Shown here: one piece after another, positions 7,064 to 59,214 of the stretch
Layout of the letters: each line of letters opens with the position of its first letter
Position numbering within the stretch: the first letter of the stretch is position 1
Origin: a virus
Direction: 5' to 3' (one strand)
Virus record (IMG/VR): IMGVR_UViG_3300032770_000005
Span: 1 to 64,000 of that record
Length of the DNA: 64,000 nucleotides
The notes under the pieces: model-generated
The model's input: only the letters and a program-made list of their open reading frames with translations
Databases searched by the model: none
What the model was told of the DNA's origin: nothing
Translations under genes and position numbers: made by a program

Positions 7064-7728
7064 AGAGCCTGGCCAAGAGCAAGATCTGCTGCGGCACGAC
7101 GCGCCACACGGTCGAGCTGTTCGCGGACGGTTCGCTGACGTGCGAGTGCGGCACGGCGGGGCTCGACCATGGCGCGGCGATCGCCGGCACGCTGGCGCTC
7201 GGTGGCGCTGGCGGCGTGCGCGGCTGCGCGGGGCTCGCGGCACTCGTGCACGGTGCGCCCGCGCTCGCGCGAGAGGTCTGCGGAGCGAAGGAGCCGGCGT
7301 ACGGCAGCTGGCGTCCGCTCGTCGAGGCGTACCGGACCAACCCGGTGTTCGTGGCAGCGATCGCGCTCGCCGCCGCTGCGCGCGAGCCGGTCCACGAGCG
7401 CATCCGGGACGCGACGCGGCAGGTGAGCTTCGGGCACGGGCTCAGCCAGCGCGCGTTCGAGCGACGGCACCTCCGCTTCATGTGGGACGTCACGCCGAGC
7501 GAGCTGAATCGCTTCGTCGTCGCCTCGTTCGCCGACGATCGCTGGGACATCCCGTACACGCCCGACTGGCTCAGCTCGGTGACCGAGCCGGTCGTGGACG
7601 GCCGGTTCGTCTGCGGGCGCGGCGAGGACGGCACGCTCTTCGTCATCACCCAGCATCCCGACGGCGAGGCCTGGTGGGTCATGCCGCATCGGCTCGTCGA
7701 CGGGCGGCTGGTGGAGGCGGCTGCATGA
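7060..7728 (+). CDS. hypothetical protein
   Basis: Coupled at both ends. Confidence 0.65.
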   Translation: MKSLAKSKICCGTTRHTVELFADGSLTCECGTAGLDHGAAIAGTLALGGAGGVRGCAGLAALVHGAPALAREVCGAKEPAYGSWRPLVEAYRTNPVFVAAIALAAAAREPVHERIRDATRQVSFGHGLSQRAFERRHLRFMWDVTPSELNRFVVASFADDRWDIPYTPDWLSSVTEPVVDGRFVCGRGEDGTLFVITQHPDGEAWWVMPHRLVDGRLVEAAA

Positions 7729-8150
7729 TCCCCGTCGAACGCCTGGACGCTCTCGATGTTGCTATCAAGCGCGATGAGGTGCTGCGGGGCGCATGGGCTC
7801 GCAAGCGCAACGGGCGCCAGCTGGCGTGCCTGCTCGGGCACATCTCGCCTGAGGCTGCCGCAGCGAAGGATGCGAGCGCATGCCCGGCCGAGACGCTCGA
7901 CCCGTGGTTGGCGCACCTGCTGCCGTACATCGACGACGCATGCTCACGCCGTCGTCGCTACGAGTTCCTGCGACGCACAGCGGCGGTGCTGCGGCGCTGG
8001 CACCAGCTGCCTGCCGGAGTGCGCCGGCGACTCGACTACGAGTGCCGCGCGATTGCGGTACGTGAGTCGCGGCTAGTTTCCGCTGCCGACCGGGTCATCA
8101 ACCAGATGCTCACCGCCATGGAGCGCGAATGCGCGAAGGTGACGACATGA
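7725..8150 (+). CDS. 'MIPxERLDALD' family paralog 1 (variable core deleted)
   Basis: Shares the conserved N-terminal block and the DRxIxQMLTAMERECAKV end with six other copies. Confidence 0.8.
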   Translation: MIPVERLDALDVAIKRDEVLRGAWARKRNGRQLACLLGHISPEAAAAKDASACPAETLDPWLAHLLPYIDDACSRRRRYEFLRRTAAVLRRWHQLPAGVRRRLDYECRAIAVRESRLVSAADRVINQMLTAMERECAKVTT

Positions 8151-8788
8151 TCCCGGTCGAACGCCTCGATGCTCTGGACCGTGCGATCGAGCACGGGCAG
8201 GTTCTGCGCCACGAGTGGGCCCTGCTCGGGCACATCTCGCCGGAGGCTGCCGCAGCGAAGGATCCGTTCGCGTGCCCAGCCGAGACGCTCGATGCGTGGT
8301 TCGCGCAGCTGCTGCTGTTCATCGACGACAGATGCTCGCTCGAACGTCGCTACGAGTTCCTGCGCCGTGTGGCGGTCGTGCTGCGCCAATGGGACAGCCT
8401 CCCGTCGGAGGTCAGGTCGCGTCTCGACTACGAGTGCCGCGCGATTGCGGTACGTGAGGCTAGACAGCACATCCCAGCGAGCGAGGAGCCGTCGCTCGCG
8501 GCGCTCGACGTCGTGCTCGCGCTACTCGATCGGGCGAGCACGAGCGGTGAAATCAGCGAGCAGGAGTGGTTGGCGGCGGGACGGGCGGCGTGGTGGCCAT
8601 GGTTGGCGGCCTCGTTCGCGAAGGAGTGGGCGGCGGTGGGGGCGACGACGTGGGCGGCGCGGGCAACGGGGCGAGCGGCGGCGGCGGCACGAGCATCCGA
8701 GGAGGCCGCAGCGTCCGCCGATCGCATGATCGACGCGATGCTCACCGCCATGGAGCGCGAGTGCGCGAAGGTGGCAGCCGGCCGATAG
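8147..8788 (+). CDS. 'MIPxERLDALD' family paralog 2
   Basis: Same conserved blocks with an Ala/Trp-rich core. Confidence 0.8.
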   Translation: MIPVERLDALDRAIEHGQVLRHEWALLGHISPEAAAAKDPFACPAETLDAWFAQLLLFIDDRCSLERRYEFLRRVAVVLRQWDSLPSEVRSRLDYECRAIAVREARQHIPASEEPSLAALDVVLALLDRASTSGEISEQEWLAAGRAAWWPWLAASFAKEWAAVGATTWAARATGRAAAAARASEEAAASADRMIDAMLTAMERECAKVAAGR

Positions 8789-8789
8789 C

Positions 8790-10550
8790 ATGGGCACGCG
8801 AGCGTACAAGTACGTCATCCGGGCTCCGGTCTCGAACCGAGAGCTGATCGTCGAGCAGATGAAGGCGGCCCACCACTACCGCAACAAGCTCGTCGAGATC
8901 GAACGCATGCGCCGTCAGGCGCAGAGGGCGCTGCTGTCGTCGGCCACGCCGGTCGCCGAGGCCGAAGCCTCGCTCGCTTCGATCCTCCACGACCTCGAAG
9001 AGGCCGTGAAGGAGATCAAGGCCTACAAGCAGAACAAGCGCGCCGGCAAGGTTCCCGAGGAACTGCGCACGAAGGTCAGCATGCTGCGCGTGCGTCGGAG
9101 GGACGCGCTCGTCGCTCATCGACAGGCGCGGCTCGCCAGCAAGGAGACGCAGAAGACGGAGGCCATGACGGTCGACGCGCTCGCGGCCGACCAGCGCAAG
9201 GCGGCGCGGGCCTCGTGCGGCGTCTACTGGGGCACGTACCTGCTGGTCGAGAGCGCCGACCAGCAAGCGCGCAAGGACACGCCCCTCTACGACGGCGGCG
9301 AGCCGAGCGATCCTCGGTTCACCCCCTGGACGGGCGAAGGTCAGATCGGCGTCCAGCTCCAGCACGGCATGAGCGTCGGCGAGCTGTACGAGCCCAACAC
9401 GCTCGTTCAGCTCATCCCGCACGAACGCATCACGGTGAAGGGCCCGGCCACGAGCAAGCGTGCCGCCCGTCGCCAGTACTGCCATCTGCGGATGCGCATC
9501 CAGAGCAACGAGGCGCGCGATCCGATCTGGGCCGAGTGGCCCATGGTCATGCACCGACCGCTGCCGCCCGACGGCCGCGTCAAGCGGGTCATCGTTCAAC
9601 GGCGGCGTGTCGGCGCACACGAGGAGTGGAGCGTCGTCTTCTCCTGCGAGGCCGACTACCGCCGCATCGACAACGCCCGTGACGGCGTCGTGGGGCTCGA
9701 CATCGGGTGGCGCATGCGGCCCGATGGTCAGATCCGAGTCGGCGCCTGGGCCGGCTCCGACGGGCAGCGGGGCGAGGTCCTGCTCCCGCCGCGGCTGATC
9801 ACGGCGATGAGCAAGCCCGACGAGCTGCGCTCGGTCCGCGACAAGGCGTTCGACCGCGCCCGGGCTGAGCTGAAGCAGTGGATTCAGCAGGCCCCCTACG
9901 TCCCCACCTGGATGCGCGAGCGAGCGCAGTGGGTCGATCGCTGGAAGTCGCCGGGGCGTCTCGCCGGCATCGTCAGGACCTGGGCCGGGCTGCGCTTCGA
10001 GGGTGACCGGGAGATCTACGACCGCATGGAGGCCTGGCGCTACCACGACTTCCACCTCTGGAACTGGGAGTGTCATCAGCGCGAGACGTCAAAGCGGTGG
10101 CTGAAAGACTTCTATCGCGTGGTCGCCCGCGACCTCGCCCGCCGCTACGAGCGGCTCGTGATCGAAGAGTTCGACCTGCGACCCCTGGCGCGTAGGCCCA
10201 TGGTCGAGGACCACGACCCTACGCACCGGCTCACCAACGCCACGCGCCACCTCGTGGCGCCCTCGATGCTGCGCGAGTGCGCGATGCAGGCGTTCTCCAC
10301 CGTCGAGCAGGTCGACGCGACCAACACGACCCGCGCCTGCCGTCACTGCGGCACGATCAACTCCTGGAACGCCGCCGAGGAGGTCACCCACCAGTGCGTC
10401 TCGTGCGGCGCCGTCTGGGACCAGGACGACAACGCGGCAGACAACATCCGCATGCGCTCGGGCACGGGCAAGGTCGTCGGAGGAGAGAGGCCGACAGAGC
10501 GAGGAGGAAGCTGGGCACGGCGCAAGGCTGCTGCCAAGAACGCTGCTTGA
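8790..10550 (+). CDS. cas12m: Cas12m-like (type V-M/V-U1) effector A, 586 aa
   Basis: N-terminal QMKAAHHYRNKLVEIER and GVYWGTY...WTGEGQIGVQLQ blocks; MHRPLP; RuvC-I GLDIGWR, RuvC-II LVIEEFD, zinc finger CRHC..CVSC, RuvC-III WDQDDNAA; 36-nt repeats start at its stop codon. Confidence 0.75.
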   Translation: MGTRAYKYVIRAPVSNRELIVEQMKAAHHYRNKLVEIERMRRQAQRALLSSATPVAEAEASLASILHDLEEAVKEIKAYKQNKRAGKVPEELRTKVSMLRVRRRDALVAHRQARLASKETQKTEAMTVDALAADQRKAARASCGVYWGTYLLVESADQQARKDTPLYDGGEPSDPRFTPWTGEGQIGVQLQHGMSVGELYEPNTLVQLIPHERITVKGPATSKRAARRQYCHLRMRIQSNEARDPIWAEWPMVMHRPLPPDGRVKRVIVQRRRVGAHEEWSVVFSCEADYRRIDNARDGVVGLDIGWRMRPDGQIRVGAWAGSDGQRGEVLLPPRLITAMSKPDELRSVRDKAFDRARAELKQWIQQAPYVPTWMRERAQWVDRWKSPGRLAGIVRTWAGLRFEGDREIYDRMEAWRYHDFHLWNWECHQRETSKRWLKDFYRVVARDLARRYERLVIEEFDLRPLARRPMVEDHDPTHRLTNATRHLVAPSMLRECAMQAFSTVEQVDATNTTRACRHCGTINSWNAAEEVTHQCVSCGAVWDQDDNAADNIRMRSGTGKVVGGERPTERGGSWARRKAAAKNAA

Positions 10551-11246
10551 TCAAAGAGGCTGCGCGGCGCCTTGAAGACCGCGAACACGGAGAAGGAAGG
10601 TGCCCCGATGAACGCGAAGAGTGAGACCGACACCTATGTCTACGTGGCCGGAGCGTCGGCGGAGATCGAGCGAGCCGAGCGGATGATCGCGATCGTGCGC
10701 AGCTTCGCGAAGATCGCGTACGACTGGACGGCGGCGATGCGCCGGCACGGCCCCGACTGGGCGCTGCCGATCGACGTGCTGCGAGGGGAGTTGCAGCGCA
10801 ACCTCGACGCCGTGGACTCGTGCGAGGCGCTGCTCGTGCTCGTGCCGGCGCAGCCGATCCAGACGCATGGCGCGTGGTGGGAGTGCAGCCGAGCGAAGGC
10901 GTGGAACGACCTGATCGCCGGTCCGAGCACAGCGCACGGCCCCGGCGACCCAGGCCAGCCACGCAAGTTCATCCTGGTCTCGCTACCGAACGACAAGACG
11001 CCCTGCCCGGTCTGGCTTCAGTGCTTCGCAGATCACGTGGAGGTTTCGGACGAACTGGCGGCCGCCTATCTGCGCGGCGTGGTGGAGCAACGAAGGGCCA
11101 TCGCCCGATAGCGCGAAGCGCGAGGTAGAGAGGCTGCGCGGCGCCTTGAAGACCGCGACTCATTGTTTGCGTCCTTGAAGCACGGGCCCGCGTGTGCGAA
11201 CGTTTGGGCACGCAGAGAGGCTGCGCGGCGCCTTGAAGACCGCGAC
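10551..11246 (+). CRISPR. mini-array of repeat family A: 3 repeats, one 51-nt spacer and one gene-sized interval
   Basis: Identical 30-nt core AGAGGCTGCGCGGCGCCTTGAAGACCGCGA at 10555-10584 and within the 36-mers 11124-11159 and 11211-11246. Confidence 0.75.
10608..11111 (+). CDS. nucleoside 2-deoxyribosyltransferase/nucleotide N-hydrolase-like protein, lying between CRISPR repeats
   Basis: YVAG...YDWT...LDAVDSCEALLVL...GAWWE pattern; AAGGAAGG RBS. Confidence 0.6.
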   Translation: MNAKSETDTYVYVAGASAEIERAERMIAIVRSFAKIAYDWTAAMRRHGPDWALPIDVLRGELQRNLDAVDSCEALLVLVPAQPIQTHGAWWECSRAKAWNDLIAGPSTAHGPGDPGQPRKFILVSLPNDKTPCPVWLQCFADHVEVSDELAAAYLRGVVEQRRAIAR

Positions 11247-11269: not shown

Positions 11270-11617
11270 ATGGCCATCTCGATCAAGCCCGGCCGCTGGC
11301 TCCTCGACTGCTCTCGTCGCAAGACCCGCGGCGCCATCGCGCTCGTCGGCTCCGGCGGCACGCTTCCGAAGCAGTTCGAGACGATGCTCTCGCGCATCGC
11401 TCGCGAAGAGGTCGGGCCCGCCTACCTCGGCAAGGAACGCGGCTCGATGCACGCCGCACTGCGCTCGATGCAGGGCAGCTACGTGCTCATTACGAGCGGC
11501 CGCATCATGTTCGTCAGCGACGCCAAGGGGCTCCGAGCAGCCATGCGCAGTGCAGGCTGGAGCGTGCCGCAGCACGCTCTAAGCACCGCGTTTCCGGCTC
11601 TGTTCGGTAGTGGTTGA
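11270..11617 (+). CDS. hypothetical protein
   Basis: ORF starting 23 nt after repeat 3. Confidence 0.6.
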   Translation: MAISIKPGRWLLDCSRRKTRGAIALVGSGGTLPKQFETMLSRIAREEVGPAYLGKERGSMHAALRSMQGSYVLITSGRIMFVSDAKGLRAAMRSAGWSVPQHALSTAFPALFGSG

Positions 11618-11642: not shown

Positions 11643-11686
11643 CCGAACCGCTCGCGATGCCAACTGCGAGCGGAGAGGACGAACGA

Positions 11687-12001
11687 GTGACAGCGCCGAA
11701 CGCAATGAAGCAAGCTGGTCTGCTCTCCGTCACGGAGGTCGCGCGCCAGCTCGGGCTTCATCGCACGACGGTCTGGCACAAGATCCGGCACGGGGAGATC
11801 GTAGCGACGCCGGTCACCGAGCGCTTCGTGGGCATCTCGCCGAAGGCGCTCGACGCCTATAAGGCCGAGTTCGTGGGCGTGTATCGTTCGTCGCGCAAGG
11901 GCAAGCGCGTCGCGAACGGCAGGAGCGTCAGTAGCACGAAGAAGTCGACGTCTGTCAGGAAGCCGCGTCGCACCAAGGCGCGGCAAAGGAGCGAGTCATG
12001 A
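11687..12001 (+). CDS. excisionase-like HTH DNA-binding protein with basic tail
   Basis: LLSVTEVARQLGLHRTTVWHKIRHGEI. Confidence 0.8.
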   Translation: MTAPNAMKQAGLLSVTEVARQLGLHRTTVWHKIRHGEIVATPVTERFVGISPKALDAYKAEFVGVYRSSRKGKRVANGRSVSSTKKSTSVRKPRRTKARQRSES

Positions 12002-20279: not shown

Positions 20280-20954
20280 GTGACCGACATGATTCCGACC
20301 GAACGCCTGGACGCTCTCGATGTTGCTATCAAGCGAGGCGAGGTGCTGCGTAGGCGATGGACCCGCAAGACGAAGGATGGGCGGGAACTGGCATGCTTGC
20401 TGGCCCACGTATCGCCGGCAGTCGCCTTACGGCAGGACGCGAGCGCGTGCCCGGCCGCGACGCTCGACCGGTGGTTCGCCTTCTTGCTGCTGTTCATCGA
20501 CGACCGATGCTCGCTACGACGACGGACCGGGTTCTGCGCCGCACAGCGGCGGTGCTGCGGCGCTGGCACCGGCTGCCCGCCGTAGTGCGCCGGCGACTCG
20601 ACTACGAGTGTCGCGCGATTGCAGTGCGTGAAGCACGGCGGCACGTAGCAGCAGGCGCGACGGGCCAGCTTGCTGCGATCGATCGCGTGCTCGCACTACT
20701 CGACCTGGCTGCGGACGGCCACAAGGTCAGCAGGCAGAGGTGGAAAGCGGCTGCCGCGGAGGCTGGGCGGGCGGCGCTAGCAGCGGACGGCGCGACGCTC
20801 GAAGCTGCGTGGGCGGCGCTAGCAGACGGCGCGACGCGCGAAGCTACGCGCATCGCAGCATTGGTAGCTGATCAGGCGGCGGTTCCGTGGACAGGGTAGT
20901 GGGTCAGTTTGAGTTTTAGCTGGCGCACGCGACGGTTCTGCCGACGATGCGCAC

Positions 20955-28370: not shown

Positions 28371-29086
28371 TGTCGCGGCTAAGTCGCTCCAGGATGCCCC
28401 AGGCCGCGTCGGAGCCCCGAGACGCCGCGAACGTCGTCGAGCACGTCCTGACGGTCCCCGAGGCGCTCCTGGCTTGGGCGGCGGAACCTGCGCGGGCGAT
28501 CGCCATGGCTCGACCCTACGCAGCGGAGGTCACGCAGCTGCTCAGCCGTGGCGAGTTGTCACAGCCCGAGACCGAGGTCTTGCTCAACCGGCTCGAAGCG
28601 ATCGCCTCGGAGGCGGTCCGCGAGGGTCGCGCGGACCTGCTCGTCGGGCTCGACGTCCAGACGGCGGAGTGGCTGGGGCTCACGTTCGTCGTCGAGGCCG
28701 CCCACGGGCCGATGGAGGTCGGGCCGGACCCGGCGACCCAAGCGTTCCCCGCTCGCGAGCCCGAGTGGACCTTCGGCGAGGTCGCGGTCGTTGCCGCCGC
28801 CGGGCCCGATGCCGTCGATCTCGCCGTGCGCGCCAAGGCCCTGCTCGCTCAGGCGTTCGGTCCGGATGCCGACGAGGACGGTCGAGACTTCACGTGCCCC
28901 CGCATCCGGGCCGTGACGCTCGCGGAGCCCGAGTCGTGCATCGCTTGCGCTGGTCCGCTTCGGGCTGTTAGTGTTCGCAGCAGCGCGGGCGCCTACTGCG
29001 TGCGCTGCTGGAGCGAGCTGACGTCGCGCTTGCCCAGCCACCTCGTCGAGATCTTGCAGAAGGCCCCGAAGTCGAAGCGCACATGA
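28370..29086 (+). CDS. hypothetical protein with C-terminal zinc finger
   Basis: CIAC...YCVRC; TGATG coupling. Confidence 0.65.
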   Translation: MSRLSRSRMPQAASEPRDAANVVEHVLTVPEALLAWAAEPARAIAMARPYAAEVTQLLSRGELSQPETEVLLNRLEAIASEAVREGRADLLVGLDVQTAEWLGLTFVVEAAHGPMEVGPDPATQAFPAREPEWTFGEVAVVAAAGPDAVDLAVRAKALLAQAFGPDADEDGRDFTCPRIRAVTLAEPESCIACAGPLRAVSVRSSAGAYCVRCWSELTSRLPSHLVEILQKAPKSKRT

Positions 29087-36857: not shown

Positions 36858-37898
36858 GGCGCGAGGCCAGTGCGGGGGCTTCGTGCCTGCGACTACTGCG
36901 CCGCATGCCGCGCTGTGGTCCCAGCCGCCGCCGAGCGAGCCAGTGCGGGGGCCTCATGCCCGCGACATGCCAGCGCAGTGGCTTGGTGCCTGCGACGCTT
37001 GTCTCCTCGGCCGTCGGTGCCGTCAGTCGCGAGGCCAGCGCAGGGGCCTGATGCCTGCGGCCGTGTTGCGAAGCCTGCGCAGAGCCGAGTGCCTGCGACT
37101 GGCGCGTGACGAGATCGGCTCTACCTTAGGCGGTAAGCCGCGAGGCCGGCGCGGGGGCTTGGTGCTCGCGACGTGCGGTCCGAGCACGCACCGGCAACGC
37201 CTGTGTTTGCAGGGCCAGCGCGGGGGCCGAGTGCCCGCGACCCCACTTCTGCGATCCTTCGAGGCCAGCGCGAGGGCATCGTGCTCGCGACCGCGGATCC
37301 GTGCTCGCGACCGCGGATCGCGGTGAGGATCAACGAGCCCGGCCGCAGGGGGCATCGTGCCGTCGCGAAGCCAGCGCGGGGGCCGAGTGCTCGCGACGAG
37401 GTCGTGGGGTGCCCGTGCTCGTGGTCATGAAGCCAGGCCGGCGCGAGGGCTTAGTGCTTGCGACGAGAACTGTGAGCACCACGTCGGCTCAGCAGAAGGC
37501 CAGCGCGGGGGCCGTGTGCCTGCGACGGCGAGCCGGGCGCGCACCGACAGTGGACCGTCATCCGTCGCGAGAGGCCAGCGCGGGGGCCGAGTGCCCGCGA
37601 TTGTCTCGTCGCGGTCATGTTGTTGCGACGACATCATCGTTGCAGGGCCAGCGCGGGGGCCTGATGCCTGCGACTGGGCCGTTGCAGCGCGGTGCGAGTG
37701 CCTGTGTCGCGAGGCCAGCGCGAGGGCTTCGTGCTCGCGACGCAGGGTTCGCCTCCAGAAGCGCGCGGCGCGTGCTCCTCCTCGTCGCGAGGCCAGCGCA
37801 GGGGCCTGGTGCCTGCGACTGGAGATCTGCCATTGTCGTTGCCGGCGCCGTCGATGAGGCCGGAAATCACGCCAGCGCGAGGGTCTCGTGCTCGCGAC
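36858..37898 (+). CRISPR. orphan array of repeat family B, about 16 heterogeneous repeats
   Basis: Repeat 3' ends at 36893, 36966, 36996, 37061, 37099, 37172, 37241, 37291, 37397, 37464, 37526, 37601, 37674, 37741, 37819 and 37898; core GCCAGCGC(G/A)(G/A)GGGCNNN(G/A)TGC(C/T)(C/T)GCGAC. Confidence 0.88.
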
Positions 37899-37956: not shown

Positions 37957-38727
37957 ATGACGACCCGCCGAGGCATGCTCTGGAAGACGCCGTGGAAGAG
38001 AGATCGCAACAAGGCGCCCCTGCCTCCCGGCGGCGAGATGGCCTTCTTCCAGAACTTCGACTCCGGCGCGAACAGTTCCGCGTACAAGAGCGTCGGCAAC
38101 ACGATGCTCGGGCAGTCGCTGCCGTTCTGGTTCGGCGCAGTGAGCGCGCAGCAGAACACGCTCACCAACTTCTTCGGCGCGGTCCCCGGCGCCGGCTTCG
38201 GCTTCTCAGCAGGGCTGCTCGGTGGCACGGCTGGCCTCGTCTCGGGCAATGCTGAGGCGGCTCCGAGCCTCGTCTCCAACGGCCAGCTCGCGGTCAGGCC
38301 TGCCGCCGGCACGATCGCGGTCGTCGCCATCCTGGCGATCGTCGAGCAGGCCGGCGCGGGCTACCGGCTCACGACGTACTTCTGTCGGCTCGGGCAGCCG
38401 ATCAAGCAGACCGTGACGCCCTACGCGCCGCCCGGCGCGACGCAGCTCGTTCTGTCCGCGAGCACCGGGCTGATCCACGGCGCAGCCGGCGGAGCCGGCG
38501 TGCCGACCGCCGCCCAGGTCCAGTCGTGGTTCCAGCAGCTGAAGCTGAACCGCGAGGTCGGGGAGATCCCCGGCCTCACGTCGCACCTCTACTCCGCTAC
38601 GAGCGTCTATCCGCTCGTGCCGGCCGTGCTACCGAACGGAGCGGGCGGCCAGAACATGGACTACACGGTGATCGCTGGCGCGCCGACACCGACCAACGTG
38701 CTGCTCGCCGTGTCGTTCCCCTGGTGA
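37957..38727 (+). CDS. hypothetical (possibly structural) protein between the two orphan arrays
   Basis: TTGGCG-17-TACGAT promoter at 37921-37949; Gly/Ala/Pro-rich ORF. Confidence 0.7.
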   Translation: MTTRRGMLWKTPWKRDRNKAPLPPGGEMAFFQNFDSGANSSAYKSVGNTMLGQSLPFWFGAVSAQQNTLTNFFGAVPGAGFGFSAGLLGGTAGLVSGNAEAAPSLVSNGQLAVRPAAGTIAVVAILAIVEQAGAGYRLTTYFCRLGQPIKQTVTPYAPPGATQLVLSASTGLIHGAAGGAGVPTAAQVQSWFQQLKLNREVGEIPGLTSHLYSATSVYPLVPAVLPNGAGGQNMDYTVIAGAPTPTNVLLAVSFPW

Positions 38728-38758: not shown

Positions 38759-39205
38759 ATGAGCAACGACGCCTTCAACCGCGGCATCTTCAGCGAGCAG
38801 AAGGGCGTGCTCGACGACGCCTTCCAGAACGCGACGGGCGTCGAGCACGCGACCGGCGATCTCAAGGAGGGCATCAGAGAGAACGTCGAGATGGGCGGCG
38901 TGCGCCTCATGAGCGACTGCAACTACTGCGGGCTCCAGTGGCGCGGCATCGTGAAGTGGCCCGAGATCGCCGGCTTCTTCACCGGTCAGCAGGTGCCGGG
39001 CACCCAAGCGATCAGACCCGGCGTGGCCAGCGCCTTCGGTTGCAGAAAATGCAACAGCGTCAACAAGTTCCTGATGCCGTGGGCGGACATCAACCGGTAC
39101 GTGGCGATGGGCGTGGAGATGGGTGCGCTGCCGCGAGACATCTACAAGGTCCGCGAGCAGATCATGGCGCAGCGCGCCGCGCAGAGATCTGCACGCGGCA
39201 GATGA
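38759..39205 (+). CDS. hypothetical protein with two CxxC motifs
   Basis: CNYCG...CRKC; preceded by the palindrome AACGTGTCGGACACGTT. Confidence 0.7.
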   Translation: MSNDAFNRGIFSEQKGVLDDAFQNATGVEHATGDLKEGIRENVEMGGVRLMSDCNYCGLQWRGIVKWPEIAGFFTGQQVPGTQAIRPGVASAFGCRKCNSVNKFLMPWADINRYVAMGVEMGALPRDIYKVREQIMAQRAAQRSARGR

Positions 39206-40118
39206 CCGACATGCCTGCGCAGGGCCTCGTGCCTGCGACGCACAGCGCCGTGCATCGGCCTCAATCGCGAGGCCAGCGCGAGGGCCTCATGCTCGCGACG
39301 ACCCACGCGTGCTCTACAGGCAGGGGCCGAGGCCTGCGACCAAGAAAAGCGAGGCGCATCCGAAAGTCTGTCCGCATGCAGAAGTCTGTCCGCATGCAGA
39401 AGTCCGTCCGCAGATCGGCAGTCGCCAGGCCAGCGCGGGGGCTTCGTGCCTGCGACTTGCAGTGGGAGATCATGTCCGCCGTTGCATGCCAGCGCAGGGG
39501 CTACCTGCCTGCGACGCCCAGGCTCCGCGCGTGTTTGAGGCCAGCACGAGGGCCTCGTGCTCGTGACTCCCGTGCGGCCAGTTCTTGCTCGCTCGCGAAC
39601 CGTCCGCTTGACGACGGACGCCCCAAGGCCAGCGCGGGGGCCGAGTGCCTGCGACTTGCAGTGTGAGCAGTGTGAGATCAGATGGCGGCGCGCATGTAGA
39701 GAGCGTGGCGGCAAACACGGCCGGCGAGGCCGGCCCGTGACCGAGCGAGCGGCAGCGAACGGTAGCTCATTGCATCTTCTTCCGGGGACGATGGGTGGCC
39801 GCGCTGTCGTGGCTGCGACGGAGTTGCTGCTCCGTGGTAGTCCGGCGAGATCACGGGTCGGCCTCACCGACCGACTGCCGATCCTGCGACGCAGATCTGA
39901 GAACGACGCGCATCACGCCAGCGCGAGGGCCGCATGCTCGCGACAAGCGCTCGAACTCTACTAAGCCAGCGCAGGGGCCGCATGCCTGCGACGAGCACGC
40001 TCGCGATGACGCTCGCCGTCGCTCGGCTCGAAAGGCCATCGCGGGGCATCGTGCCCGCGACATGTGGACGGACGAGTTTCTTTTACAAGGCCAGCGCAGG
40101 GGCCCGTGTACCTGCGAC
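39205..40118 (+). CRISPR. orphan array of repeat family B, about 11 clear repeats plus eroded remnants
   Basis: Repeat 3' ends at 39239, 39299, 39340, 39456, 39515, 39567, 39655, 39944, 39992, 40061 and 40118. Confidence 0.82.
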
Positions 40119-47255: not shown

Positions 47256-47297
47256 GTTGAAAGAACGCTTGACGCTCCCGTCTGCGTAGGGTACGGC
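47252..47297 (+). promoter_or_regulatory. conserved promoter block GTGAGTTGAAAGAAC..TTGACG-17-TA
   Basis: Near-identical block at 55544-55588 and a related one at 51714-51767. Confidence 0.65.
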
Positions 47298-47303
47298 GAC
47301 AGA

Positions 47304-47993
47304 GTGATCCCCACAGAGCGACTGGACGCGCTGGACCGGGCCATCGAGCGCGGGGAAGTGCTGCGCAACGACTGGGCCCGGGAACAGGATGGTCATCAGC
47401 TGGCGTGCCTGCTCGCACATCTTTCGCCAGAGGTGGCGGTGGAGAAGTCGGCGGACGCCTGCCCCGCCAAGACCCTCGACCCGTGGTTCGCGCACCTGTT
47501 GCCGTGGATCGATGACGCGTGCTCACTCGAACGACGCGACGAGTTCCTGCGTCGCACGGCGGCGGTCCTGCGGCGCTGGGACGCACTGTCAGCCGAGACG
47601 CGTTGCCGGCTCGACTACGAATGTCGCGCGATTGCGGTGCGAGAGTCGCGGCTACGTGTGTCCGCGAGCGAAGAGCAGGCGCTTGCGGCAGTCGACGGCA
47701 TGCTTGCGTTGCTAGACCGGGCGGCCGTGGGCGGTGAGGTCAGCGCGCAGGAGTGGTCGGCGGCGGCGGCGACGGCGCGGGCGGCGGCCGCACAGGAGTG
47801 GTCGGCGGCGGCGGCGGCGGCGGCCGCGCAAGTGCGGGCGGCGGCGGCGGGGGCGGCCGCGTGGGCGGCGCGGGCGGCACCGGCTTCGGCGCGGGCGGCA
47901 GCAGCGGCTTGGGCGCGGGCGGCGGCGTCCGATCGAATGATCGACCGCATGCTCACCGCCATGGAGCGCGAGTGCGCGAAGGTGACGCCATGA
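47304..47993 (+). CDS. 'MIPxERLDALD' family paralog 4
   Basis: Conserved family blocks with a poly-Ala core. Confidence 0.8.
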   Translation: MIPTERLDALDRAIERGEVLRNDWAREQDGHQLACLLAHLSPEVAVEKSADACPAKTLDPWFAHLLPWIDDACSLERRDEFLRRTAAVLRRWDALSAETRCRLDYECRAIAVRESRLRVSASEEQALAAVDGMLALLDRAAVGGEVSAQEWSAAAATARAAAAQEWSAAAAAAAAQVRAAAAGAAAWAARAAPASARAAAAAWARAAASDRMIDRMLTAMERECAKVTP

Positions 47994-48673
47994 TCCCTAC
48001 GGAACGGTTGGACGCGCTGGACCGGGCCATCGAGCGCGGGGAGGTGCTGCGCAACGACTGGGCTCGGGAGCAGGACGGTCGCCAGCTCGCGTGCCTGCTC
48101 GCGCATCTTTCGCCAGAGGTGGCGGTGGAGAAGTCGGCGGACGCCTGTCCGACCAAGACGCTCGACCCGTGGTTCGCGCATCTGCTGCCGTGGATCGACG
48201 ATGCGTGCTCGCTGGAGCGCCGCGACGAGTTCTTGCGTCGCACGGCGGCAGTGCTGCGGCGCTGGGACGCGCTGTCGGCAGAGACTCGGCGGCGTCTCGA
48301 CTACGAGTGCAGGGCGATCGCGGTGCGAGAGGCGCGGCTGCACGTGTCTGCGAGCGAAGAGCAGGCGCTTGCGGCGATCGACAGCATGTTCGCGTTGCTC
48401 GACCGCGCGATCGCGGGCGGTGAGGTCAGCAAGCAGGAGTGGTCGGCGGCGGCGGCGTCGGCGCGGGCGGTGGTCGCACAGGAGTGGTCGGCGCCGGCGG
48501 CGGGGGCGGCAGCGGCCGCGCAAGTGCGGGCGGCGGCGGCGCGTGCGGCACAGCTGGCGACTGAGGCGGTGTTGGCGCCCGAGGTGGCGGCTCAGGCGAT
48601 GGCGTCCGATCGCATGATCGACCAGATGCTCTCCGCCATGGAGCGCGAGTGCGCGAAGGCGGCGGTGACATGA
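47990..48673 (+). CDS. 'MIPxERLDALD' family paralog 5
   Basis: Near-identical to paralog 4 over the N-terminal two-thirds. Confidence 0.8.
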   Translation: MIPTERLDALDRAIERGEVLRNDWAREQDGRQLACLLAHLSPEVAVEKSADACPTKTLDPWFAHLLPWIDDACSLERRDEFLRRTAAVLRRWDALSAETRRRLDYECRAIAVREARLHVSASEEQALAAIDSMFALLDRAIAGGEVSKQEWSAAAASARAVVAQEWSAPAAGAAAAAQVRAAAARAAQLATEAVLAPEVAAQAMASDRMIDQMLSAMERECAKAAVT

Positions 48674-52235: not shown

Positions 52236-52489
52236 TGGCGATGTCTCTCGTCGAGCGCGTTCGCAGGTTCAAGAACACGACCGGCACGTGCTCGTGGGGC
52301 GGCGCGCACGCAGGGCTCCATCCGGATGCGTGCGTCTGCAATCGAGAACCGGATGCGTATCCGGGGACGCCGCACACGCACTACGATGAGCCGCCGCACG
52401 AGTGTGCGCGCTGCGGGTGCACGGCGTACCAGCCGTGGCTCACGCTCGACTTCGTCATCCCGGGTCTGACCGTGGAGCCTACGACATGA
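52235..52489 (+). CDS. small Cys/His-rich protein
   Basis: TGATG coupling. Confidence 0.55.
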   Translation: MAMSLVERVRRFKNTTGTCSWGGAHAGLHPDACVCNREPDAYPGTPHTHYDEPPHECARCGCTAYQPWLTLDFVIPGLTVEPTT

Positions 52490-53265
52490 TTCCGCTCGAA
52501 CGCCTCGATGCCCTTGATGCCGCGATCGAGCGCGGGGAAGTGCTGCGTGGTGAGTGGACTTGCGAGGAGGACGGGCGCCAGCTGGCGTGTCTGCTCGCGC
52601 ATGTCTCGCCTGAGGTGGCGACGGCGAAGTCGGTGTCCGCCTGCCCCGCCAAAACGCTCGACCCGTGGTTCGCGCATCTGCTGCTGTACATCGACGATGA
52701 GTGCTCGCTCGAACGTCGCGACGAGTTCCTGCGACGCACGGCAGCAGTGCTACGGCAGTGGCACCGGCTATCCACGGAGACGCGCCGGCGGCTCGACTAC
52801 GAATGCAGAGCGGTTGCGGTCCGTGAGGTGAGGCCACACGTGCCGCTGAGCGAGGCGCAGATGATTGTGGCGATCGACAGCGCCCTCTTGCTGATTGCCA
52901 GAGCATGCGCAGGCGAGGTACTCAGCGAGCAGGAAGGGGAGGCGGTGCGCTGTTCGTTGTTCGCCGTAGACGAGGCGATGCAGTTGGCAGCGACGGCGGC
53001 GGTCCGGTCGGTGGCAGCTAGCGCGTTGCCGTGGGCAGAGCGAGCGGTGTGGTCGTCGTCGTCGACGGTGGATCCCGCGGCAGCTGCGAATGCTGCGCGA
53101 GCGGCAACGCGAGCGGTGGTGGCATTCGCGTTCGATGTGCTGGAGCCGGCAGGCTCGGCGGCGGCGGTCGCGGCGTGGACTGCGTCCGCAGAGGCGTCCG
53201 CAGATCGAATGATCAACCAGATGCTCTCCGCCATGGAGCGGGAGTGCGCGAAGGTGGCGGCGTGA
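52486..53265 (+). CDS. 'MIPxERLDALD' family paralog 6
   Basis: Conserved family blocks. Confidence 0.8.
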   Translation: MIPLERLDALDAAIERGEVLRGEWTCEEDGRQLACLLAHVSPEVATAKSVSACPAKTLDPWFAHLLLYIDDECSLERRDEFLRRTAAVLRQWHRLSTETRRRLDYECRAVAVREVRPHVPLSEAQMIVAIDSALLLIARACAGEVLSEQEGEAVRCSLFAVDEAMQLAATAAVRSVAASALPWAERAVWSSSSTVDPAAAANAARAATRAVVAFAFDVLEPAGSAAAVAAWTASAEASADRMINQMLSAMERECAKVAA

Positions 53266-53582
53266 TCTCCGTGGTCGACGTCGCAACGGAGAAGGAGTTC
53301 CTCGACCGCGCGACGGCCGCCGGCACTACGGTCCACGTTCTTCGGACCACCGCGGTTGCTCCTGTGCCGCTCGGAGGCGGGACAGTGCTCCTGCGTTCTG
53401 CCATCGCGCTCCAGTACTCGTTCGAGACCCATTCCGAGAACGGTGATACGCGGTGGGTGTATCGCGAGCGCTGCGTCGCGGATGAGCATGGCATCGTGGA
53501 CCTCTCGAACGTTTTGCTCACGCGGATCGCGGACGCAGGCGTTCCTACGGTCGTGTTCACGCAGCGCAGCGGGTCGCTATGA
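53262..53582 (+). CDS. hypothetical protein
   Basis: GTGA/ATGA coupling between two paralogs. Confidence 0.6.
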   Translation: MISVVDVATEKEFLDRATAAGTTVHVLRTTAVAPVPLGGGTVLLRSAIALQYSFETHSENGDTRWVYRERCVADEHGIVDLSNVLLTRIADAGVPTVVFTQRSGSL

Positions 53583-54385
53583 TTCCGGTCGAACGCCTCG
53601 ACGCCCTTGATGCCGCGATCGAGCGCGATGAGGTGCCGCTTGCATGGAAGAAAGAGCAGGGCGGACGGGTACTCTTGTCCTTCCTCGCTCACCTTTCTCC
53701 GGTGTTTGCGGCGCAACCGTCTTGGGGGCTCCTGACGAGCCGACCCGGCGACTCGTTCTACTACGGCTTGGTCGAGGGGACGCTCGACCCGTGGCTTGCT
53801 GAGCTACTTGAGTGGATCACGCGTACCGGCTCGCCTGAGCGGCGCGACCGCGTTCTGCGTCGCACGGCGGCAGTGCTGCGGCGCTGGGACGCGCTGTCGG
53901 CAGAGACGCGACGCCAGCTCGACTACGAGTGCAGGGCGATCGTGGTGCGCGAGGCTAGACAGCACGTACCGGAGAGTGAAGAGCGCTCGCTCGCGGCGAT
54001 CGACAACGTGCTCGCGTTGCTCGATCGCGCGATCGCTGGTGGCGAGGTCGGCGAGCGGGAGTGGTCGGCGGTGGAGGCGAGCGGGATTGCAGAGGCGCAG
54101 GCATTGAGCGCACGAGGGGGGAGCGTTCGCGCGCGAGGAGGGGACATTCATGACATTCGCGTAGCGTGGCAGGCTACACAGGCCGCATACGTTGCGTGCG
54201 AGCGGTTGCCAAGGGCCGCCAAGTACGCAGTGTATCGTGCAGTAGATGCGGCGCCGTTGACACTGGTACCGCGGCCGCCTGACGGGACACATTGGTACTT
54301 TTATGCACAATGTGTAGTTGCCGACCGGATCATAGACCAGATGCTCACCGCCATGGAGCGCGAATGCGCGAAGGTGACGACATGA
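53579..54385 (+). CDS. 'MIPxERLDALD' family paralog 7 (most divergent)
   Basis: Conserved blocks with two divergent, less GC-rich inserts. Confidence 0.8.
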   Translation: MIPVERLDALDAAIERDEVPLAWKKEQGGRVLLSFLAHLSPVFAAQPSWGLLTSRPGDSFYYGLVEGTLDPWLAELLEWITRTGSPERRDRVLRRTAAVLRRWDALSAETRRQLDYECRAIVVREARQHVPESEERSLAAIDNVLALLDRAIAGGEVGEREWSAVEASGIAEAQALSARGGSVRARGGDIHDIRVAWQATQAAYVACERLPRAAKYAVYRAVDAAPLTLVPRPPDGTHWYFYAQCVVADRIIDQMLTAMERECAKVTT

Positions 54386-56921: not shown

Positions 56922-57352
56922 TGAACGCGCCCGACATGACGTCCCTCTCGCGCCGAGATCGCGCCGCCATCTTGCTGGCGTTGACGTGGATTCGCGTCAC
57001 GCCTGGTCGCGGTGGCGGTCCGCTGCTGGCGCGGGAGCAGGCGTGCGAAGCGCTGCGGATGGGAGGCAAGGGGGCGAAGGCGATCGCTGAGGCCGTGGCC
57101 AGCGCGAACTCGGAACTGGCGTCCGAGATGGCACGCAACGGCGACTTGTCATCGGAGGCACGCTATCTGGACGTGCTCGCCACGAACCGGCGGCTGGTCC
57201 GCGCCCGCCTCGCGCTCTTCCTGCGGACCGTCGTGCGCGTTGACGACGACGATTACGGATGTTGGGACGGAGACCGCGGTGGATGGTTGCCGCGGCCGTA
57301 TCATGCTCTCTGGGAATCCGCACCACCGCATCGAAAGAAGGTCAGCCAATGA
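56921..57352 (+). CDS. hypothetical protein translationally coupled to Cas12m-like effector B
   Basis: TGATG start; ATGA overlap with 57349. Confidence 0.6.
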   Translation: MNAPDMTSLSRRDRAAILLALTWIRVTPGRGGGPLLAREQACEALRMGGKGAKAIAEAVASANSELASEMARNGDLSSEARYLDVLATNRRLVRARLALFLRTVVRVDDDDYGCWDGDRGGWLPRPYHALWESAPPHRKKVSQ

Positions 57353-59214
57353 GCGTCAAGGTCTATCGCTATGGTTTGGGCGCACCGGTCGAGAACGAAG
57401 CGTTGGTGCGGGCGCAGCTGCGTGCGGCGCATCACTACCGCAACGCGCTCGTCGAGGTCGAGCGGTGGCGCCGCGCCGAGCACCGACGACTGCTCGGTGC
57501 GCATCCGGGCGTCGGGCCGGCGGAGGCCGCGGTGACGCTCGCCCATGCGGTGCTCGACGAGGCGTTGACCGCCGTCAAGCGCGTGAAGGGGGCGAGTCGC
57601 AGCGGTGCGGTGCCGTCGGAGTTGCGCGCTGCGCTCCATGTGGCGCGCTCCCGCAAGGCCGATGCCGTGCGAGCGTTCCGAGAGGCGCGAGCGGCGCTGC
57701 GCGGAGACGAAGCGCTGAACGCCGAGCGGGCGCGCGTCGACGAGACGGCTGCTCAGCGGCGGAAGGCCCTCCGAGCGTCCTGCGGCGTCTACTGGGGCAC
57801 GTACCTCGGGATCGAAGCGGCGGATGAGCAGTCGCGCAAGCAGCCGCTCTACGACGGCGCGGAGCCGCTCGACCCGCGGTTCATGCCGTGGACGGGCGAA
57901 GGACGTGTCGGCGTTCAGTTCCAGGGCGGCCTCGCGGTCGACCAGGTGGTGGACGACACGCGCATGAGGATCGAGGACGCGCAGCCGGTGCGCGTCTCAA
58001 AGCTCGGGCGCGTGCTGCCTCAGCGTGATCCGTCGAGCAAGCGATCCGCCCTCCGCCGCTACGCGACGCTCGCGCTGCGCGTCGGGTCCGACGACGATCG
58101 TGGGCCCGTGTGGGCTCGCTGGCCGCTCGTGCTGCACCGGCCGCTCCCCGAGGGCGGCGTCCTCAAGTGGGCACACGTCTCGCTCCGGCGGATCGGTCCG
58201 CGCGAGGAGTGGTCGCTGCTTTGCACCGTCGAGAGCGAGGACCGTCGCCCGCTGCCGCCGCTCGAAGCCGGAGCGGTCGCGGTCGATCTCGGGTGGCGGC
58301 AGATGGACGACGGCTCCGTGCGCGTCGCCTACTGGCTGGGCCAGGACGGGCAGGAGGGCGAACTGCGGCTCTCGCCGCGCGACCTCTCCGGGCTCTCGAA
58401 GGCGGACGAGGTGCGGGCTGTCCGCGACCGCGCCTTCGATGCCGCGCGCCGCGAGCTGCGTGAGTGGCTCGCCACGAACCCTGGTCGACCGTGGCTGAGG
58501 ACGAGGTGCGAGTGGATCGACCGGTGGAAGGCGCCGGGCCGGCTCGCCGCGACGGTCGTGCAGTGGCGCGCGGACGGCTTCCGCTTCGAGGGCGACAAGG
58601 AGATCTTCGTGAAGCTCGAAGCGTGGCGCAAGCAGGACAAGCACCTCTGGTGCTGGGAGACGTCGCAGCGCACGGGCGCGCTGCGAGCGAGGAAGGATCT
58701 GTACCGCCGCTTCGCGTGTGACCTGGCGCGTCGCTACCGCACGCTCGTGATCGAAGACTTCGACATGCGCGAGGTGTCGCGCCGACCTGCCGCGGACGAA
58801 GCGGCCGGCAACGCTGCCGCGCGGTCGATGAGGCAGCGGGCAGCGCCGAGCGAGGCTCGTCTCGCGCTCGTGCACGCGTTCCGCGACGTGTCGAAGCAGG
58901 ACCCCGCCGACACGACCCACGACTGCCACTCGTGCGGGTCGCGCGAGCAGTTCGATCAGGCGGCCGAGCTGGTCCATCGCTGCGGAGCGTGCGGCACCGA
59001 GTGGGACCAGGACCGGAACGCGGCTATCAACCTGATGCGTCGCGCGAGCGATGCCGGTGCTCTCGGAGAAGGCGGGGTCGCTCGCGAGCCGCGAGAGGCC
59101 AACGATTTCGAGGCGAAGCCCGCGGGCCGATGGGCGCGAGCGAAGGCGAAGAAGGCCGCTCGCATCGCGCAACAGGCGACCGCTCGCGAAGCGGCGCCCA
59201 GTGACGCGGAATGA
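57349..59214 (+). CDS. cas12m: Cas12m-like (type V-M/V-U1) effector B, 621 aa
   Basis: QLRAAHHYRNALVEVER, GVYWGTY, WTGEGRVGVQFQ, LHRPLP, RuvC-I AVDLGWR, RuvC-II LVIEDFD, CHSC..CGAC, RuvC-III WDQDRNAA; the array starts after a 19-nt gap. Confidence 0.82.
   Translation: MSVKVYRYGLGAPVENEALVRAQLRAAHHYRNALVEVERWRRAEHRRLLGAHPGVGPAEAAVTLAHAVLDEALTAVKRVKGASRSGAVPSELRAALHVARSRKADAVRAFREARAALRGDEALNAERARVDETAAQRRKALRASCGVYWGTYLGIEAADEQSRKQPLYDGAEPLDPRFMPWTGEGRVGVQFQGGLAVDQVVDDTRMRIEDAQPVRVSKLGRVLPQRDPSSKRSALRRYATLALRVGSDDDRGPVWARWPLVLHRPLPEGGVLKWAHVSLRRIGPREEWSLLCTVESEDRRPLPPLEAGAVAVDLGWRQMDDGSVRVAYWLGQDGQEGELRLSPRDLSGLSKADEVRAVRDRAFDAARRELREWLATNPGRPWLRTRCEWIDRWKAPGRLAATVVQWRADGFRFEGDKEIFVKLEAWRKQDKHLWCWETSQRTGALRARKDLYRRFACDLARRYRTLVIEDFDMREVSRRPAADEAAGNAAARSMRQRAAPSEARLALVHAFRDVSKQDPADTTHDCHSCGSREQFDQAAELVHRCGACGTEWDQDRNAAINLMRRASDAGALGEGGVAREPREANDFEAKPAGRWARAKAKKAARIAQQATAREAAPSDAE

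Follow-up and report, generated by a model that had tools for sequence, protein, structure and literature searches.

A nucleoside deoxyribosyltransferase-like gene in the first spacer slot of a viral Cas12m mini-array

What is the role of a complete gene that is found in a position where a CRISPR array is expected to contain a spacer? Such arrays are usually seen as strings of short non-coding spacers preceded by their own leader. In the locus described here, a full protein-coding gene replaces a spacer in an apparently operon-embedded Cas12m array. It is located in an IMG/VR virus record of 152,857 bp with a GC content of about 68%, whose first 64 kb, analysed at full length, we refer to as the window. 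The original prediction had offered two answers to the question, namely that the repeats may be reused as Cas12-dependent mRNA processing sites, or that the gene was captured into the array as a cassette. The elements of the locus are listed below in the order of their position in the window.

8790–10550, plus strand: cas12mA, encoding a type V-M effector of 586 residues, which has a TNB zinc ribbon and whose RuvC triad is D-E-D
10550–10585, plus strand: R1, a 36-nt repeat with intact scaffold, which ends with AA and not with the invariant AC (covariance model 27.5 bits, E 1e-3)
10586–10607, plus strand: 22-nt leader of the NDT gene in the 'guide' position after R1, which holds the Shine-Dalgarno sequence GGAGAAGGAAGG
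10608 (ATG)–11111 (TAG), plus strand: NDT/DNPH1-fold gene of 504 nt (167 amino acids), which fills the first spacer slot
11124–11159, plus strand: R2, a canonical 36-nt repeat ending with AC (covariance model 33.8 bits)
11160–11210, plus strand: the only conventional spacer of system A, with a length of 51 nt (family norm 36–39 nt)
11211–11246, plus strand: R3, a canonical 36-nt repeat ending with AC (covariance model 31.9 bits)
11270–11617, plus strand: the next gene (ORF 11270), encoding 115 amino acids, with a GC3 of 0.82 and its ATG 23 nt after R3
11657–12001, plus strand: HTH_17 gene following ORF 11270, with further plus-strand genes beyond

The gene preceding the repeats had been taken for a cas gene, an assignment that is borne out by the match of residues 10–560 of its product to the PDB entry 23vw_A ('CRISPR-associated DNA-binding protein Cas12m') with an E-value of 1.1e-66. 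Matches were also obtained to the structure of Cas12m2 (8hhl, E 1e-23) and to the Pfam family PF07282. As judged by this homology, which extends over the full length to characterised Cas12m proteins, effector A is a type V-M Cas12m. The best of the 95 homologues that were collected share at most 45% of their residues with it, and a single-sequence scan of viral contigs for close relatives returned one locus with 35% identity. The whole virus contains two copies of cas12m only, the second of which, at 57259–59214 of the window, is 45% identical to cas12mA and is accompanied by an array of its own, in which more than 13 repeats are found. No Cas1 (PF01867) was detected in the virus and no adaptation genes are found at the cas12mA locus. 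In other regions of the window, we noticed a 24-nt tandem repeat with 13.5 copies (91% matches) at positions 1–323, which is the very start of the virus record, and a tRNA-Pro(CGG) called by ARAGORN at 28572–28668 whose 97 nt are unusually long for a tRNA.

The arrangement of the repeats is as originally described: R1 begins at the cas12m stop codon (TGA, 10548–10550), whose final A is at the same time the first base of the repeat, and a core of 30 nt, corresponding to positions 6–35 of the 36-nt repeat, is identical in R1, R2 and R3. A 29-nt repeat core is found exactly three times, in the window as well as in the whole 152,857-bp virus, where none would be expected by chance, and no further copies were detected elsewhere in the virus if up to three mismatches were allowed. 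A search of other viral and metagenome contigs for the core of R1–R3 found no carrier. R1 deviates only in its 5' tail and in its last base. The five differences between R1 and R2 are all confined to the six positions outside the 30-nt core, which has a probability of 6/376,992 under uniform placement and which implies that either the scaffold is under constraint or that only the core was copied.

The fold of the repeats was defined by their relatives. From contigs of viruses and genomes, we have gathered 54 related cas12m loci, of which 22 each contributed a single 36-nt repeat to the alignment on which a covariance model was built. The alignment contains a 3-bp helix (columns 9–11 with 20–22) and a 6-bp helix (columns 14–19 with 29–35), with 93.9% of the cells being paired and all nine pairs varying on both sides across the 22 loci. 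None of 500 shuffles matched this covariation and no slid register came near to it either. The pseudoknot and stem of the repeat constitute the scaffold that was solved for Cas12m2 (PMC10442227). In R1, R2 and R3, the pseudoknot and a stem of 5–6 bp are intact and all three match the covariance model; on the strength of this agreement in sequence, they are genuine type V-M repeats. Folds of minimum free energy computed for the repeats and their flanks were uninformative (z-scores −1.4 to +0.9) and, because the fold is a pseudoknot, it is covariation rather than folding energy that supports it.

The exception to this uniformity concerns the 3' end of R1. The final two bases of the aligned repeats, AC, are invariant in all 22 loci, and the base at position −1, which is C throughout the 22 repeat families, is A in R1. 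In Cas12m2, C(−1) is read base-specifically via His269 and Arg270 (PMC10442227), to which, as we infer, the invariant pair H255-R256 that is kept in Cas12mA corresponds. Since A(−1) replaces an invariant and base-specifically recognised residue, R1 may be bound or processed less well than R2 and R3, which weakens the assumption that it equals the other two repeats. By its sequence, R1 is best described as a scaffold-perfect yet slightly off-consensus repeat, whose A(−1) could either reflect decay or binding of the handle without arming a guide.

The position of R1 is in itself not exceptional. In each of 31 related loci, the array follows downstream of cas12m in the same orientation. Its first repeat starts 2–206 nt after the cas12m stop codon and, in 15 cases, no more than 40 nt away from it; in one locus (L055), it overlaps with the stop codon. 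R1 thus sits in the standard place of a first repeat in this family, and the anomaly of the locus consequently resides in the gene occupying the first spacer slot, which measures 538 nt compared to the usual 36–39 nt. The interval between R2 and R3 is 51 nt, so regular spacers of about 36–39 nt are absent from the cas12mA mini-array; the period of the arrays in relatives is 72–75 nt. Long intervals in a locus of Actinomadura (L058) were considered and rejected, since its array is degenerate with a spacing of about 70 nt.

The content of the slot had been predicted as an intact NDT-like reading frame with a ribosome binding site and about 23 and 12 nt of slack in an interval of roughly 540 nt. 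The measured values are 22 nt to R1, 12 nt to R2 and 538 nt in total, with a strong Shine-Dalgarno sequence in the leader, and the assignment of the protein stands as well. The protein itself has no direct sequence match in Pfam, PHROG, NCBIfam or the PDB. An exhaustive search recovered 178 relatives, and 38 of the 47 that were aligned match the Pfam family PF05014 (nucleoside 2-deoxyribosyltransferase), while the profile reaches structures of NDT and CMP hydrolases. An AlphaFold2 model of the protein (pLDDT 92) retrieved DNPH1 and NDT structures in Foldseek with a probability of 1.0 and TM-scores of 0.6–0.76. Glu92, the presumed catalytic residue, follows a G-x-W/T motif and is nearly invariant among the aligned relatives. 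Based on its predicted structure, the embedded gene encodes a member of the nucleoside 2-deoxyribosyltransferase/dNMP N-glycosidase superfamily with a Rossmann-like NDT fold. Its GC3 of 0.87 and its codon usage are like those of the rest of the virus, and the gene has therefore not been imported recently.

The closest homologues of this protein, with identities of 39–44%, are encoded in early or recombination modules of phages beside genes of integrases, ERF and PD-(D/E)XK proteins, and neither a cas12m gene nor a repeat scoring above 15.5 bits was found around them. The embedded gene is therefore a normal phage gene of the nucleotide-metabolism type, and the repeats flanking it are peculiar to this virus. 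By the same token, NDT was rejected as a Cas12m-associated gene. A peptide-pattern scan of viral contigs for the NDT-like protein found nothing, and no paralogues of either this protein or of the product of ORF 11270 were detected beside other arrays of the virus. The gap between the stop codon of the NDT gene and R2 is filled by a perfect 4-bp GC hairpin (CGCG-AAG-CGCG, 11112–11122), which is not statistically distinctive and which would become the 3'-terminal structure of the NDT mRNA after cleavage in the tail of R2.

The second interval has the layout originally described, with the 51-nt spacer (11160–11210) followed by R3 (11211–11246) and by an ORF starting 23 nt later with an ATG at 11270. 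No target of the spacer was found in the genome of the virus in searches with 18–22 nt and 3–5 mismatches allowed, and no meaningful 12-mer match was obtained. A 17-mer of the spacer has 116 hits in metagenomes and 23 in viruses, none of which extends past 19 nt, and we therefore regard these as chance matches. A decayed repeat hidden within the 51 nt was considered and rejected (local alignment score 18, p about 0.1 against the genome background). The product of ORF 11270 has no match in Pfam, PHROG or NCBIfam.

The locus is embedded in a long stretch of co-oriented genes: between 2378 and about 20585, every well-supported gene is located on the plus strand. cas12mA starts 1 nt after the gene at 8129–8788, and downstream genes overlap (12001/11998). 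A scan of the plus strand between 8000 and 13700 found no sigma-70-like promoter and no intrinsic terminator, a negative result that is weak because an E. coli-type consensus was applied to a virus with 68% GC. As the simplest reading of this arrangement, we infer that cas12mA, R1, the NDT gene, R2, the spacer, R3 and the next ORF would be co-transcribed. Tight junctions between genes are commonplace in phages, where they do not necessarily point to a function. The gene at 8129–8788, which abuts the start of cas12mA, belongs to a multi-copy paralogue family with members at 7725–8141, 20286–20743, 47295–48664 and 52483–54376 of the window and at 80116–80274 and 114877–115404 of the genome, and one fragment of these paralogues directly adjoins a minus-strand array at genome positions 79946–80108.

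The close apposition of genes and repeats is not confined to cas12mA. The covariance model detects about 96 repeats in about 13 clusters across the virus, in both orientations and nearly all of B-type, with each cluster being co-oriented with the gene upstream of it. The arrays tend to be eroded and heterogeneous, and hardly any pair of B-type repeats is identical. Three places bear on the arrangement described here.

36858–37898 and 39205–40118 of the window, plus strand: arrays C and D with B-type repeats, which bracket two genes (about 37957–38727 and 38759–39205)
104082–104366 of the virus genome (L061:282–566): ORF of 94 amino acids between B-type repeats at 103987–104022 and 104365–104400
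100441–100594 of the virus genome (L060:16541–16694), minus strand: mixed A/B mini-array, the second locus with A-type repeats

The final base of the stop codon in the gene at 38759–39205 is also where the first repeat of array D starts. The ORF at 104082–104366, which has a GC3 of 0.88 and belongs to no family, has a TGA that overlaps with the start of the next repeat and is a second single gene in spacer position. The mixed mini-array opens with a degenerate A-like repeat, whose start coincides with the TAG of the minus-strand gene at 100592–101110. A B-type repeat follows after about 36 nt and, 13 nt further on, an A-type repeat whose loop has 1 nt inserted and whose stem includes a G-U pair; the next gene comes after another 41 nt. 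This order of elements suggests that both effectors may draw on one transcript. The other genes that sit between repeats of this virus have no Pfam match.

Related features are found in loci of other contigs. In L017, the main array is followed, after 1.6 kb, by an ORF (8068–8382) whose TAG is located inside a repeat (8370–8405) and by another repeat; the coding statistics of this ORF are plausible and those of other ORFs in the same gap are poor. L040 contains a solitary repeat (7852–7887), located about 90 nt before the start codon of cas12m, which is possibly an autoregulatory cr-like unit, and an ORF of 213 amino acids between cas12m and the array. The region around this solitary repeat (L040:7808–7977) also includes a terminator-like hairpin preceding it. 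In L055 and L056, two contigs binned with Polyangiaceae MAGs, a single repeat follows the cas12m stop codon, in L056 at a distance of about 100 nt. This repeat (within L055:9869–9975 and at L056:2253–2288) is of the same GGC...GCC...TTGAA class as the A-type, the first 9 nt after it are common to both contigs and, in L055, a hairpin with a U-tract is found about 22 nt after the repeat; by its sequence this locus looks like a natural one-guide Cas12m locus. Flush interleaving of genes and repeats therefore recurs in this virus and, more loosely, in the Cas12m viruses L017 and L040.

How would an effector act on a transcript of this kind? In orthologues of Cas12m, the pre-crRNA is cut inside the repeat at a site upstream of the scaffold, in a process that depends on Mg2+ and on the protein and that is independent of RuvC (PMC11013384, PMC10442227). 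The orthologues bind DNA in a PAM-dependent manner without cleaving it, their handle is disordered from position −36 to −30 and the guide duplex comprises 17 bp (PMC11013384, PMC10442227). Because Cas12m proteins cut their own repeats, cutting of this polycistron by Cas12m is the likeliest consequence of the arrangement. We interpret the locus as a virus-borne type V-M Cas12m mini-array built into an operon, with cas12m-dependent cutting of the polycistron as its best-supported consequence, a reading which we consider probable, if only just.

In the proposed mechanism, a single polycistron would extend from genes upstream of cas12mA into genes of the replication module downstream. Cas12mA would bind the scaffold of the repeats, consisting of the pseudoknot and the stem, and cut the RNA in the 5' tail, 5–8 nt into each repeat. 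A cut at R1 would trim the cas12m mRNA to within a few nucleotides of its stop codon, so that hardly any 3' UTR would be left, and cuts in R1 and R2 would release an NDT mRNA headed by the R1 handle, with its ATG at +23 and its Shine-Dalgarno sequence falling into guide positions of about 5–16. Cuts at R2 and R3 would generate one crRNA composed of the R2 handle and the spacer, and the cut at R3 would yield a downstream mRNA in which the R3 handle comes first and the ATG is located at +24. Both the NDT and the downstream mRNA would then carry at their 5' ends a Cas12m-bound handle located 22–23 nt before the start codon. Such cutting might possibly serve to stabilise or mask 5' ends or to autoregulate cas12m, or it might merely be tolerated. 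The original proposal of Cas12-dependent processing sites is in line with the operon context, the published self-processing, the intact scaffolds and the recurrence of the layout, with cleavage itself being the conjectural part. The term 'reused' implies an adaptation that goes beyond the evidence.

The present order of elements presumably originated either from the insertion of a gene into the array or from an array being split by recombination between repeats. A serious rival, which we regard as possible though not probable, treats this event as a neutral accident, where the array acquired the NDT gene or was split by recombination between its repeats, R1 is a relic that has gone out of use by Cas12mA and the NDT gene is translated from read-through mRNA independently of Cas12mA. 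This reading would accommodate the exchange of the invariant C(−1) for A in R1, the single true spacer and the eroded A-type copies at genome positions 100441–100594, which suggest that system A is decaying, and the mostly eroded and heterogeneous state of the arrays in this virus, and it agrees with the nature of the NDT homologues elsewhere, which are ordinary phage genes without repeats nearby. However, it does not readily explain why the 30-nt scaffold of R1 equals those of R2 and R3 while their flanks differ, in a virus whose B-type repeats are almost never identical. Two identical direct repeats of 30 nt would also invite deletion of the gene between them, yet the NDT gene is intact, and the flush architecture is found in at least three other places in the virus.

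At the other extreme, Cas12m and its repeats might have been co-opted as post-transcriptional punctuation or control, with flush cuts, masking of the ribosome binding site and tuning of the NDT gene, the next gene and cas12m, which we consider unlikely. Still less likely appears a specific form of translational control, where the R1 and R3 handles bound to Cas12mA bury the leaders of 22–23 nt, and with them the Shine-Dalgarno sequence of the NDT gene, in the guide channel, and where rising levels of Cas12mA shut off the NDT gene and the next gene and trim its own mRNA. The overlap of the stop codon with the repeat tail, where cleavage is reported (PMC11013384, PMC10442227), would be compatible with such control. 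The same holds for the location of both start codons 22–23 nt after a repeat, just past the 17–20-nt guide segment held by Cas12m, and for the Shine-Dalgarno sequence at guide positions of about 5–16. Yet this spacing is found at two junctions only, with other genes starting 41–72 nt after B-type repeats, A(−1) of R1 may impair guide loading and we know of no precedent for Cas12m acting on mRNA.

Capture or exchange of the gene as a cassette, which had been proposed as the second explanation, would require that identical repeats serve as homology arms to swap genes between co-infecting viruses with the same repeat. The NDT gene is indeed bracketed by identical 30-nt direct repeats, repeats of the family occur at 13 loci and in both orientations, a scatter which suggests recombination activity, and the slots between repeats are filled by different and unrelated genes. 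We nevertheless find this explanation highly doubtful, with the R1–R3 repeat being present in no other viral or metagenome contig, no NDT homologue being flanked by Cas12m repeats, no recombinase being tied to the repeats and a GC3 that matches the virus. Finally, solitary phage repeats can act as Racrs (PMC10651486), but a role of R1 as an RNA anti-CRISPR-like decoy (a solitary repeat unit) against a Cas12m of the host or of a rival is very unlikely for a repeat that directly follows, in the same virus, the gene of its cognate effector, whose core matches the repeats of the mini-array of that effector and for which no host array was found among viral and metagenome contigs.

If Cas12m cuts these transcripts, as in our preferred reading, crRNA biogenesis and the maturation of viral mRNA would be one reaction, and a DNA-binding CRISPR effector would double as a factor that processes or masks mRNA. 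Type V-M CRISPR-Cas12m loci were reportedly described by Wu et al. in 2022. The present locus shares with those of MmCas12m (Cas12m2), GoCas12m, MsCas12m and TfCas12m (PMC10442227, PMC11013384) the fold family of the effector of about 600 amino acids, the 36-nt repeat with its pseudoknot, stem and 3'-AC, and the co-oriented array located directly downstream of cas12m. It further resembles them in the dispensability of a tracrRNA, the lack of an adaptation module and, by analogy, the processing of pre-crRNA by the effector itself. In contrast to the known systems, a coding gene of 504 nt with its own ribosome binding site occupies the first spacer slot, there is only one true spacer (51 nt), the setting is a viral operon and R1 lacks C(−1), and this virus contains two effectors and about 96 repeats distributed over 13 loci.

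Type V-M systems occur on plasmids and prophages (PMC11656645), and the Cas12m locus of the myxophage MV-1 contains one conventional array with eight spacers (bioRxiv 10.64898/2026.09.14.751636). The latter shares with our virus a phage-encoded Cas12m with a D-E-D triad, an adjacent array, the absence of cas1, cas2 and cas4 and the lack of an identified protospacer, but no genes between its repeats are reported. In cas loci, stand-alone repeats have been described as well as regulatory mini-arrays, CreTA-type modules among them (Shmakov et al. 2023, 10.1101/2023.03.03.530964). Similar to the locus in our study, these are repeat-like units outside of a normal array and beside cas or cargo genes, for which non-immune roles were proposed. 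They act by partial complementarity of a spacer to a promoter, whereas here a whole gene is placed between full repeats, and no cr-like match of the spacer at 11160–11210 to a promoter or 5' region was found in the 153-kb genome (18–22 nt, 3–5 mismatches). In the literature on stand-alone repeats, Racrs, type V-M systems and phage Cas12m, as far as our incomplete coverage extends, no protein-coding gene between CRISPR repeats is described; the locus is a new architectural variant of type V-M.

If the predicted cutting takes place, the locus would illustrate a new natural role for CRISPR repeats. A comparable principle is used in engineered operon insulation, where Csy4 sites are placed between cistrons, or where Cas12a is combined with crRNA arrays in the 3' UTRs of mRNAs. 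We know of no natural counterpart of such insulation by a CRISPR RNase that has been reported. The viral locus resembles these designs in the placement of repeats between cistrons and in the presence of effector and guides on one mRNA, with its cutting being predicted. In contrast to these synthetic constructs, its layout is natural, and, if it is cut as proposed, it would constitute a natural counterpart of insulation by Csy4 or Cas12a and offer a compact ready-made part for multi-gene constructs.
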